From positions 86,678 to 150,677 of the forward strand of contig JAQTNC010000001.1 in the NCBI GenBank assembly GCA_028714475.1: 64,000 nt of DNA, written 5' to 3'. The position numbers and the translations under genes were made by a program. The DNA comes from Patescibacteria group bacterium (GTDB lineage: Bacteria; Patescibacteriota; Patescibacteriia; SG8-24). Numbering within the stretch: position 1 is the stretch's first letter; every line of letters begins with the position of its first letter. This document shows positions 9,638 through 9,791 of this stretch, in pieces. The notes beneath the pieces were generated by a model. It was not told the DNA's origin, made no database searches, and saw only the letters and a list, made by a program, of their open reading frames with translations.

Positions 9638-9791
9638 ATTGGTTAGTTGGTAGTTTTTAGTTTGTAGTTTGTAGTAACCACTTCGGATATCCTATCATTT
9701 CGGCGGGATTTTGCCGAGGCAAACCCGAAAAACGTTATTTGCTTATGACGAGTTTATCCACAGAAACGGAAAAATGCGAGAGATTCGAAGG

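Follow-up and report, generated by a model that had tools for sequence, protein, structure and literature searches.

Tandem heptanucleotide arrays in the gap and thyX leaders and two modes of translation initiation in a Patescibacteria genome

In a 64-kb stretch of contig JAQTNC010000001.1 from a Patescibacteria group bacterium (the whole 64,000-nt stretch is hereafter called the window), the genes gap and thyX carry the same 15-nt sequence upstream of their start codons. This raises the question of whether the sequence is a signal dedicated to the two genes, a substitute for a Shine-Dalgarno (SD) site or a by-product of something broader. According to our analysis, the 15-mer is incidental and results from a repeat phenomenon of wider extent. 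At both genes it is made of two units of a tandem heptanucleotide, CTACAAA, which appears to be one of many expanding CA-rich heptads, not a dedicated operator. We consider it somewhat more probable than its negation that such arrays are labile, slippage-derived spacers, tolerated and perhaps favoured, which would keep an SD-independent start unstructured. The elements of the two loci are as follows.

8555–9637, minus strand: gap, encoding a type I GAPDH of 360 aa; ATG at 9635–9637, T at position −1, no SD (duplex energy +1.9 kcal/mol).
9640–9674, minus strand: heptad array of the gap leader, within a 42-nt G-free run (9636–9677) that extends to the ATG; period 7 and 4.6 copies by Tandem Repeats Finder (TRF); unpaired in the minimum free energy (MFE) and centroid folds.
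9660–9674, minus strand: exact 15-mer CTACAAACTACAAAC, two heptad units of the gap leader, found by exact match search.
9689–9697, minus strand: candidate extended −10 element TGATAGGAT upstream of the gap array, putatively placed 51 nt before the ATG.
47799–47807, plus strand: candidate extended −10 element TGATACAAT, putatively placed ~68–69 nt before the thyX ATG.
47847–47861, plus strand: exact 15-mer CTACAAACTACAAAC of the thyX leader, found by exact match search.
47847–47869, plus strand: heptad array of the thyX leader, CTACAAA CTACAAA CCACAAA CT, within a 25-nt G-free run (47845–47869); period 7, 3.3 copies by TRF.
47876–49558, plus strand: thyX, encoding a long ThyX of 560 aa typical of the clade; ATG at 47876, T at position −1, no SD (duplex energy +0.7 kcal/mol).

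The two exact matches to CTACAAACTACAAAC are the only ones in the window. With up to two mismatches allowed, five overlapping matches were obtained, all at the gap and thyX loci, compared with 0.03 expected from shuffled sequences; none of the 100 shuffles reached five. In mRNA sense, the gap leader reads ...GTGGTTA CTACAAA CTACAAA CTAAAAA CTACCAA CTAACCA AT ATG and the thyX leader reads ...GGCC CTACAAA CTACAAA CCACAAA CTGACCCT ATG, with two and three ACA trinucleotides, respectively. The sequence-only reading of this DNA had reported the 15-mer before both genes, and it is indeed there; its distance to the ATG, given as 15–20 nt, is approximate, the measured values being 22 nt at gap and 14 nt at thyX. 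Both starts are secured by full-length NCBI proteins of 360 and 560 aa that are 100% identical to the products and have equally long homologues, and the products match the Pfam families GAPDH and ThyX. No SD was found between the array and the ATG of either gene. The duplex energies given above were calculated with CACCUCCUUUC, and the same test on 46 other genes gave −7 to −14 kcal/mol.

The window has a G+C content of 60%. Its GyrB, like ThyX and GAP, is identical to a protein of a Patescibacteria group bacterium metagenome-assembled genome, and the nearest relatives of the three, at 70–80% identity, belong to Candidatus Uhrbacteria and Parcubacteria; by these similarities, its lineage appears to be an Uhrbacteria-like member of the candidate phyla radiation (CPR). 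About 56 genes were called by a codon-usage model and annotated with Pfam, ~20 of them without a Pfam match. The gene set includes eno, pgk, gap, tsf, rpsB, rpmE, prfA, prmC, rplY, ftsW and gyrB, as well as secE, nusG, rplK, rplA, dut, cmk, thyX, tmk, gatB, miaA, miaB and thrS. Orthologous leaders were reached by protein search and contig look-up, which provided six syntenic loci of relatives: L201–L203 via ThyX (70–72% identity) and L204–L206 via GAP (82–89%), L203 being Ca. Uhrbacteria RIFCSPHIGHO2_02_FULL_60_10.

No CTACAAA repeats precede gap or thyX in these six relatives. In the thyX leaders of L201 and L202, ~22 nt of G-poor sequence come after a TATAAT box, and the thyX leader of L203 contains (AATCCCTT)x3.5; the gap leader of L204 has ACTCCTAAAC twice, and those of L205 and L206 are short and lie behind TATAAT. 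The CTACAAA-type unit is used at another gene, since L203 carries CTACAAACTACTCACTACCAACCACTCACT immediately before gatB. Other units stand before thyX, DUF2779 and miaA in L203 (CAAACTC at miaA), before the SIMPL gene and fpg in L204 (TCAACTC at the SIMPL gene), before fpg and prfA in L205 and before the metallophosphatase gene in L206 (CACCATC); the fpg unit is TCTTCACA. A GAPDH scan of genome contigs was uninformative about leader conservation, as it returned mixed phyla with mostly SD-led leaders for a gene prone to horizontal transfer.

Beyond these relatives, a metagenome scan for three units, CTACAAACTACAAACYAMAAAC, gave at least 120 stretches, and 80 loci were kept. Among the matches listed were one Curtissbacteria (CPR) contig, one Paludibacter (Bacteroidota) contig and at least ten loci with an array before the ATG of a housekeeping gene. 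Judged by their N-terminal sequences, the array-led genes look like rplF, rpsG, rsmH, purE and ubiE, and pgi was confirmed by the source name. An ATG of an open reading frame (ORF) of at least 100 aa was found within 40 nt of the array in 13 sense and no antisense cases among the matches listed, and ten of the 13 sense arrays are true leaders after exclusion of three internal Met codons. In 38 of the 80 listed loci, the array lay inside a long ORF. In viral contigs, composition-matched permuted heptads gave 39 and 25 stretches, compared with 19 for CTACAAA, and CA-rich heptad arrays of several permutations were all far commoner than chance in public contigs. The idea of CTACAAA as a special lineage-specific word was rejected in view of the Curtissbacteria and Paludibacter matches and of the permuted heptads, which are at least as frequent in viral contigs.

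Because gap and thyX of the relatives lack the unit, which is used at other genes, and because permuted heptads are just as common, CTACAAA would hardly be a dedicated operator. The earlier suggestion of a shared regulatory motif for highly expressed genes is thus contradicted by the array's absence at the relatives' gap and thyX and by the same unit before gatB. In its most explicit form, it would be a cis-regulatory site at which a protein or a G/U-rich small RNA (sRNA) binds CUACAAA and co-regulates gap (glycolysis) and thyX (dTMP synthesis). This is the least probable of the explanations that we weighed, although two leaders within 64 kb have an exact 15-mer in common, leaders rich in C/A are targets of GcvB-type sRNAs (Yang, Figueroa-Bossi & Bossi 2014, PMC3879156), and a CTACAAA-type leader of L203 has a complementary (TAGTTTG)x5.4 array upstream of it. 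Orthologous leaders, however, are not conserved and the relative uses the unit at a different gene; no complementary GTTTGTAG copy was found elsewhere in the window on either strand; the search for Rfam families at the gathering score gave none (at E≤1 only spurious miRNA models elsewhere), and no structure is predicted, with nothing that points to a riboswitch, ribosomal-protein leader or thermometer. In addition, many genes carry unrelated units, and composition-matched heptad arrays are as common. A GUUUGUAG-rich trans-encoded transcript or a repeat-binding protein would be the partner that this already disfavoured explanation needs.

The gap and thyX arrays belong to a larger class. TRF with a period of 4–12 and at least 2.8 copies, run on the window and L201–L206 (178 kb), revealed 55 arrays. 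All 32 noncoding arrays had a period of 7 (13 arrays) or 8 (19 arrays), and coding arrays mostly had a period of 6, 9 or 12. Ten of the 11 start-adjacent arrays (ending no more than 30 nt from the start codon) were G-poor on the sense strand, with a G fraction of 0–0.11, and copy numbers varied by locus between 3.3 and 5.9. In divergent gene pairs, both genes received the same unit in sense orientation, as at DUF2779/thyX of L203 and in the window at 1–151. Two further leader arrays of the window are the following.

101–138, plus strand: G-free array of the heptad (CTTTACA)x5.3 in a leader, 18 nt from the ATG at 156.
35341–35368, plus strand: octamer array (CTTCAGCA)x3.5 in the leader of a GNAT gene, 11 nt from the ATG, with the array's complement upstream, so that a hairpin is possible.

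The CTTCAGCA/CTCCAGCA octamer occurs in 3.5–4.5 copies at three loci of the window (30427–30462, 35341–35368 and 16118–16151). AGAGACA-type units lie at 25384, 25433 and 62664, CTTTACA/TTTACTTT units lie at 55–138, and the CAGCATCT family is present four times in L206. The octamer array at 16118–16151 lies in what appears to be the N-terminal coding part of an NTP-transferase gene, where it encodes ...APALQRSSTPALH.... In the divergent region 1–151, the minus strand at 6–92 carries a T-rich G-free tract of (TTTACTTT)-type units before a gene beyond the window edge, and the two halves of the region are partly complementary.

The loci that bear CTACAAA hold 129 other period-7 arrays with diverse units (27 per 100 kb). 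For 80 GAPDH loci from diverse bacteria the density is 2.7 per 100 kb, and the arrays there are clustered in a few metagenome-assembled genomes (MAGs) of the Planctomycetes-Verrucomicrobia-Chlamydiae (PVC) and Fibrobacteres-Chlorobi-Bacteroidetes (FCB) groups. The period-7/8 arrays seen in the GAPDH loci L013, L022, L043, L020 and L044 come from Verrucomicrobiota, Planctomycetota, Fibrobacter and Bacteroidales MAGs, L020 having a complementary array pair CACAGAGA/CTCTGTGA. Verrucomicrobial gap leaders are likewise CA-rich and SD-less.

Two further explanations bear on how such arrays arise and turn over. One is a neutral microsatellite without constraint, in which a common low-complexity word happened to expand twice and gave the shared 15-mer by chance. 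The general abundance of CA-rich heptad permutations and the lack of conservation at orthologous sites are in line with it, but we regard it as very improbable in view of the orientation bias (10 of 11 clade arrays, and 10:0 for the true-leader arrays among the metagenomic matches listed), the exclusive 7–8-nt period of the 32 noncoding arrays, the recurrence of the same units within one genome and the position of arrays 6–20 nt from the start codons on both sides of divergent pairs (DUF2779/thyX of L203; window 1–151). The other is a contingency or tuning locus, in which gain or loss of a 7-nt unit would alter leader length and thereby tune or switch downstream expression. A repeat size of 7–8 nt is used in known phase-variable promoters, and here the units are tandem and of this size, array turnover between relatives is fast and copy number differs among loci (3.3–5.9). 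Nevertheless, we consider this reading quite improbable: the arrays seem to lie downstream of −10-like boxes, outside the −35 to −10 interval, the genes that they precede are essential housekeeping genes, degenerate units lower slippage rates and coding arrays are stable across 66%-identical orthologues. Moreover, the contig pairs L083/L101 and L109/L127 have the identical array and flanks over the ~110 nt displayed. The protein searches with ThyX and GAP gave no second strain of the genome itself. Phase-variable simple sequence repeat loci of Haemophilus and Neisseria (PMC2651432) are alike in having short 5' tandem repeats, including 7-nt units, whereas the arrays described here are degenerate, lie downstream of the likely promoter and precede essential genes.

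The second part of the question is how gap and thyX start translation without an SD. Initiation statistics were compiled for 161 genes of the window and L201–L206, with window starts chosen by us and the relatives' starts taken from the source annotation; an SD was called strong when its duplex energy was −6 kcal/mol or stronger. Strong SDs were found in 46 of the 161 genes (29%), and they were far more frequent among genes without a Pfam match (26 of 50, 52%) than among annotated genes (20 of 111, 18%; odds ratio 4.9, Fisher p=2e-5). The contrast also holds in the relatives alone (p=5e-4). The mode is kept gene by gene: tmk has an SD in all four genomes compared (−7.4 to −11.5 kcal/mol), whereas the SD energy of thyX, gatB, rplK, rplA, tsf, pgk and dut never falls below −3.3 in any genome compared. 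The proposal of two initiation regimes in one genome is thus supported. The CA-rich, SD-less leaders of tsf, rplK and secE, as well as the AAGGAGG-type SDs of hypothetical genes, on which it had been based, proved on inspection to be as described; examples are given below.

12695–12713, minus strand: SD-less CA-rich leader of tsf, CCACCTAATCCCAACCAAC, followed by ATG.
34407–34425, plus strand: SD-less leader of secE, CTTCAATACCCAGAACCAT, followed by ATG.
38827–38850, plus strand: SD-less CA-rich leader of rplK, CACCCAACAACCAACCAACTGACT, followed by ATG.
23731–23742, minus strand: strong SD GAAGGAGAAGGA of a hypothetical gene.
26464–26474, plus strand: strong SD GGAAGGAGGAG of a hypothetical gene (duplex energy −13.9 kcal/mol).
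50411–50416, plus strand: SD GGGAGA of tmk, a contrast case directly downstream of the SD-less thyX.

The SD-less leaders are depleted in G: at −30 to −1 the base fractions are G 0.17, C 0.29, A 0.28 and T 0.26, in genomes with 29–31% G. Mean MFE of the region −40 to +21 is −9.2 kcal/mol for SD-less and −12.9 kcal/mol for SD starts (p=8e-6); for gap it is −0.2 kcal/mol, compared with −18.1±6.1 for random 61-nt windows of these genomes. Non-SD genes in general are marked by reduced structure (Nakagawa et al. 2017, PMC5397173). T occupies position −1 in 90 of 115 SD-less genes (78%, p=7e-33) and in 11 of 46 SD genes (24%), and 28 of the 38 SD-less genes that we called in the window have it, for example gap (9638), thyX (47875), pgk (4623) and rplK (38850). 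This UAUG context is consistent with pairing of U(−1) with A37 of the initiator tRNA, which raises initiation in E. coli (Hollerer & Jeschek 2023, PMC10018350). A TATAAT-like box within 60 nt upstream is present in 38 of 115 SD-less and 4 of 46 SD genes; the boxes peak at 28–36 nt, and leaders would therefore be ~20–30 nt long. In the relatives, TATAAT lies 36 nt before the gap ATG and 28–30 nt before the thyX ATG. If the candidate TGATAGGAT is the −10 element of gap, it would put the array in a ~45-nt 5' untranslated region (UTR).

Among the SD genes, GGAGG peaks at −12 to −7. No rRNA genes were found by the Rfam search in the window or in the relatives' loci fetched. Since the genome has uL1 and strong SDs with this GGAGG peak, the anti-SD of its 16S rRNA is probably intact; in CPR, the anti-SD is lost only in a Parcubacteria subgroup lacking uL1, and bS1 is present but short (PMC9297842). 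The SD-led genes are shorter (median 208 aa versus 270 aa). Recent acquisition of the SD-led genes as foreign DNA was considered and rejected, as the G+C content of third codon positions is 0.82 in both classes and the codon score does not differ within annotation classes. A TATAAT/TAGAAT box ending 7–8 nt before the ATG was seen at a TrmB-like gene (ATG 44585, box region 44586–44600, minus strand) and at DUF2779 (43711), which suggests that these two mRNAs may be leaderless, beside the SD-led and short-leader classes. Leaderless genes would have a −10 box ending ~6–8 nt before the start; the nearest boxes of gap and thyX lie 51 and ~68–69 nt away. The searched literature yielded nothing specific on SD or leaderless initiation in Patescibacteria.

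If the SD is missing, a sequence-specific translational enhancer could take its place, with CA-rich/ACA heptads recognised by bS1 or an rRNA segment at gap and thyX. CA multimers and the G-free omega leader of tobacco mosaic virus enhance translation in E. coli. Every CTACAAA unit holds an ACA, and ACA motifs are additive, position-flexible enhancers in Salmonella (PMC3879156). The arrays abut housekeeping start codons always in sense orientation, and the words AAC, ACC and AACCA are enriched in SD-less leaders. From the literature, enhancement of translation by the tract would be plausible. We nevertheless regard this explanation as rather unlikely. ACA is not enriched, with 0.37 per SD-less leader compared with 0.57 per SD leader, and was rejected as the common denominator of these leaders; the leaders of gap and thyX in close relatives lack the array and have unrelated G-poor sequence instead; and the units are very diverse, including T-rich CTTTACA, TCAACTC and AATCCCTT. 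AACCA stands at no fixed distance from the ATG. The ACA enhancers of the enterobacterial mRNAs that GcvB targets resemble the present leaders in their G-poor CA-rich tract, repeated ACA and flexible position, but they work in combination with an SD, and none is present here, whereas our leaders show no ACA enrichment and their units vary widely between genes. Similarly, the earlier proposal that CCAAC-type motifs replace the SD is supported by the enrichment of AACCA-like words and weakened by their lack of a fixed position and by the ACA counts; a positional CCAAC/AACCA box was rejected for the same lack of a fixed distance to the ATG, the counts being partly inflated by orthologous leaders. 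Altogether, the signal in SD-less leaders looks compositional, not like a defined site.

A compositional signal leads back to the explanation that we prefer, the array as a labile spacer. An SD-independent start would here have a short leader that follows a TATAAT-type promoter, is depleted in G and folds weakly, and a U(−1) that can extend the pairing with A37, and 30S binding would presumably be aided by bS1 or by the closeness of the start to the 5' end. Arrays of 7–8-nt units turn over fast at individual genes, the presumed cause being slippage or recombination, and the leaders of gap and thyX would have been lengthened relative to their orthologues by a heptad array inserted between the candidate extended −10 and the ATG. 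The shared 15-mer would then be a by-product of two independent or dispersed (CTACAAA)n copies in the 5' untranslated leaders of these genes. A G-free CA-rich tract would lack self-pairing and any SD-like or start-like words, giving a longer leader that still leaves the initiation region open. Having no G, the tract can form neither G-C nor G-U pairs, and it offers few U to pair with A. In agreement, the gap and thyX arrays are unpaired in both MFE and centroid folds, and because they fold like their own shuffles (z=0.16), composition and not order matters. Beside start codons, the arrays may have persisted only where their orientation leaves the region of initiation open and devoid of SD-like or start-like words. 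The array would thus be a sequence-unspecific, tolerated, possibly mildly beneficial spacer or a standby/landing tract, not a gene-specific operator. The sequences show the anatomy of the arrays, the statistics, the absence of conservation, the orientation rule and the predicted lack of structure; from them we infer that the arrays are transcribed, that they help or at least do not hinder ribosome loading and that they originated by slippage.

The same repeat is also found translated. In other uncultured bacteria, CTACAAA arrays lie in frame at the metagenomic loci L082, L114, L137, L155, L152, L116, L119, L148 and L153, and also at L130, L099 and L089, and their translation is an LQTTNYK-like peptide. 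Pfam searches on ten array-bearing ORFs gave one continuous domain alignment across the array for seven of them (GatA, TopA, TsaD, Fmt, MurB, DnaG and KsgA); in the LigA-like, IleRS-like and glycosyltransferase ORFs, the array lies between or outside the best reported domain stretches. The antisense strand of CTACAAA has TAG in every frame, and only the sense orientation can therefore code.

Several observations weigh against the spacer explanation. The exclusive 7–8-nt period is not accounted for by a simple slippage model, units recur within the 64 kb (CTACAAA twice, CTYCAGCA three times, AGAGACA-type two to three times), and in orthologues of GatA and MurB, which are 66% identical at the DNA level overall, the arrays are 89–91% identical at the same site. 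This recurrence and the 89–91% identity of the coding arrays suggest that more than passive tolerance is at work, be it dispersal, homogenisation or a constraint on the sequence itself. An array does not imply SD-less initiation, since a normal SD comes after the arrays of several metagenomic loci (L081, L133 and L134). A complementary G-rich array lies upstream of many arrays and would sequester them in predicted long hairpins. Finally, a simple sigma-70 promoter scan called no promoter for gap or thyX, and the promoter positions given here for both genes are consensus guesses only.

The predicted hairpins include one upstream of the GNAT gene (35296–35378, plus strand), formed by (TGCTGAAG)n/(CTTCAGCA)n, with −35.4 kcal/mol (z=−3.4), and another upstream of ftsW (25330–25490, minus strand), formed by (TAGAGACA)n/(TGTCTCTT)n, with −37.9 kcal/mol (z=−2.8). 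Matches of Rfam miRNA models to the ftsW hairpin were rejected as spurious. A G-rich array followed by a complementary C-rich array was also seen in L203 (gatB), in L204 and L205 (fpg) and in L206 (metallophosphatase).

In view of these observations, a dedicated mechanism that spreads or homogenises the arrays is conceivable, as is a factor that binds them. A far-reaching version would be an undescribed system of the CPR clade, and apparently also of some PVC/FCB bacteria, in which 7–8-nt arrays serve as modular G-free 5'-UTR cassettes for UAUG-dependent, SD-independent initiation. Such cassettes would be spread by a dedicated mechanism (recombination, templated copying or an array-binding protein), would sometimes be paired with complementary arrays as switchable hairpins and would also seed in-frame LQTTNYK-type inserts in essential enzymes. 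At present, we consider such a system speculative and unlikely. G-less leaders might also be imagined as GTP-sensing cassettes, a possibility that we considered.

Among known systems, the closest repeats are the short tandemly repeated repetitive (STRR) sequences, heptanucleotide arrays reportedly described from heterocystous cyanobacteria by Mazel et al. in 1990. Their canonical units are CCCCAGT, TTGGTCA and CAACAGT. STRR fingerprinting is in use (PMC5088731). The STRR and the arrays described here are alike in their tandem 7-nt units, with few unit families dispersed over many noncoding loci. They differ in phylum and units, and in the present arrays 8-nt units are equally common, a strand rule holds at starts, complementary arrays are often paired and identical arrays are present, in frame, within genes of other organisms from metagenomes. 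Our search of the literature yielded nothing specific on heptanucleotide or other tandem repeats in CPR, and period-7/8 noncoding arrays with a strand rule and in-frame copies were not found described in it; in this respect they are comparable to the unexplained cyanobacterial STRR.

With regard to initiation, the SD-less genes resemble the non-SD genes surveyed by Nakagawa et al. (2017), a mode of initiation of the Bacteroidota and cyanobacteria type. Both lack anti-SD complementarity, show less folding at the start and have biased upstream nucleotides, and in both a large share of the genes in one genome is concerned, among them those for ribosomal proteins and other core functions. That survey was without CPR. 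In contrast to its non-SD genes, strong SDs here coexist on ~29% of genes, mostly lineage-specific ones, G is depleted while C and A are kept at 60% GC, T(−1) reaches 78% and leaders consist partly of 7–8-nt arrays. The preference for U just 5' of AUG is shared with the U(−1)-A37 quadruplet pairing of E. coli, where the effect is modest (PMC10018350), whereas here U(−1) marks 78% of SD-less and 24% of SD genes. This suggests that U(−1) makes up for the absence of an SD.

Hardly anything is known about how CPR bacteria initiate translation; they have not been cultured, their ribosomes are reduced and some of their lineages are without the anti-SD. In this Uhrbacteria-like lineage, two separable start grammars could be read from the sequence alone, a strong SD and a G-free short leader with UAUG, and core genes use the SD-less one. 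This may be of use for tuning start prediction of gene callers in CPR and for the design of expression cassettes for the few cultivable Patescibacteria, and the replacement of the SD by U(−1)-A37 pairing is a testable prediction.

Some minor features of the window should also be mentioned. Its GAPDH is 75–80% identical to GAPDHs labelled as Bacteroidota, Margulisbacteria, Spirochaetes, Verrucomicrobia and others (L001–L080); these identities, far above the expectation for a housekeeping marker, suggest that gap may have been exchanged horizontally. Between two convergent genes, a self-complementary (TAGCTAG)x4.4 array at 22963–22993, flanked by T5 and A4, looks like a putative bidirectional terminator made of a heptad repeat. 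ORF-poor stretches of 0.7–1.3 kb, unusually long for a small CPR genome, are located at 9692–10479, 13533–14624, 17748–18782, 33477–34425, 35874–37193 and 37986–38682; they gave no Pfam match (three candidate ORFs were run), no Rfam match and no similarity to hypothetical proteins of the relatives. The ORF-free gap at 56069–56585 contains a GC-rich, near-perfect palindromic hairpin (56364–56441), which has a sub-threshold match to a miRNA model on both strands.

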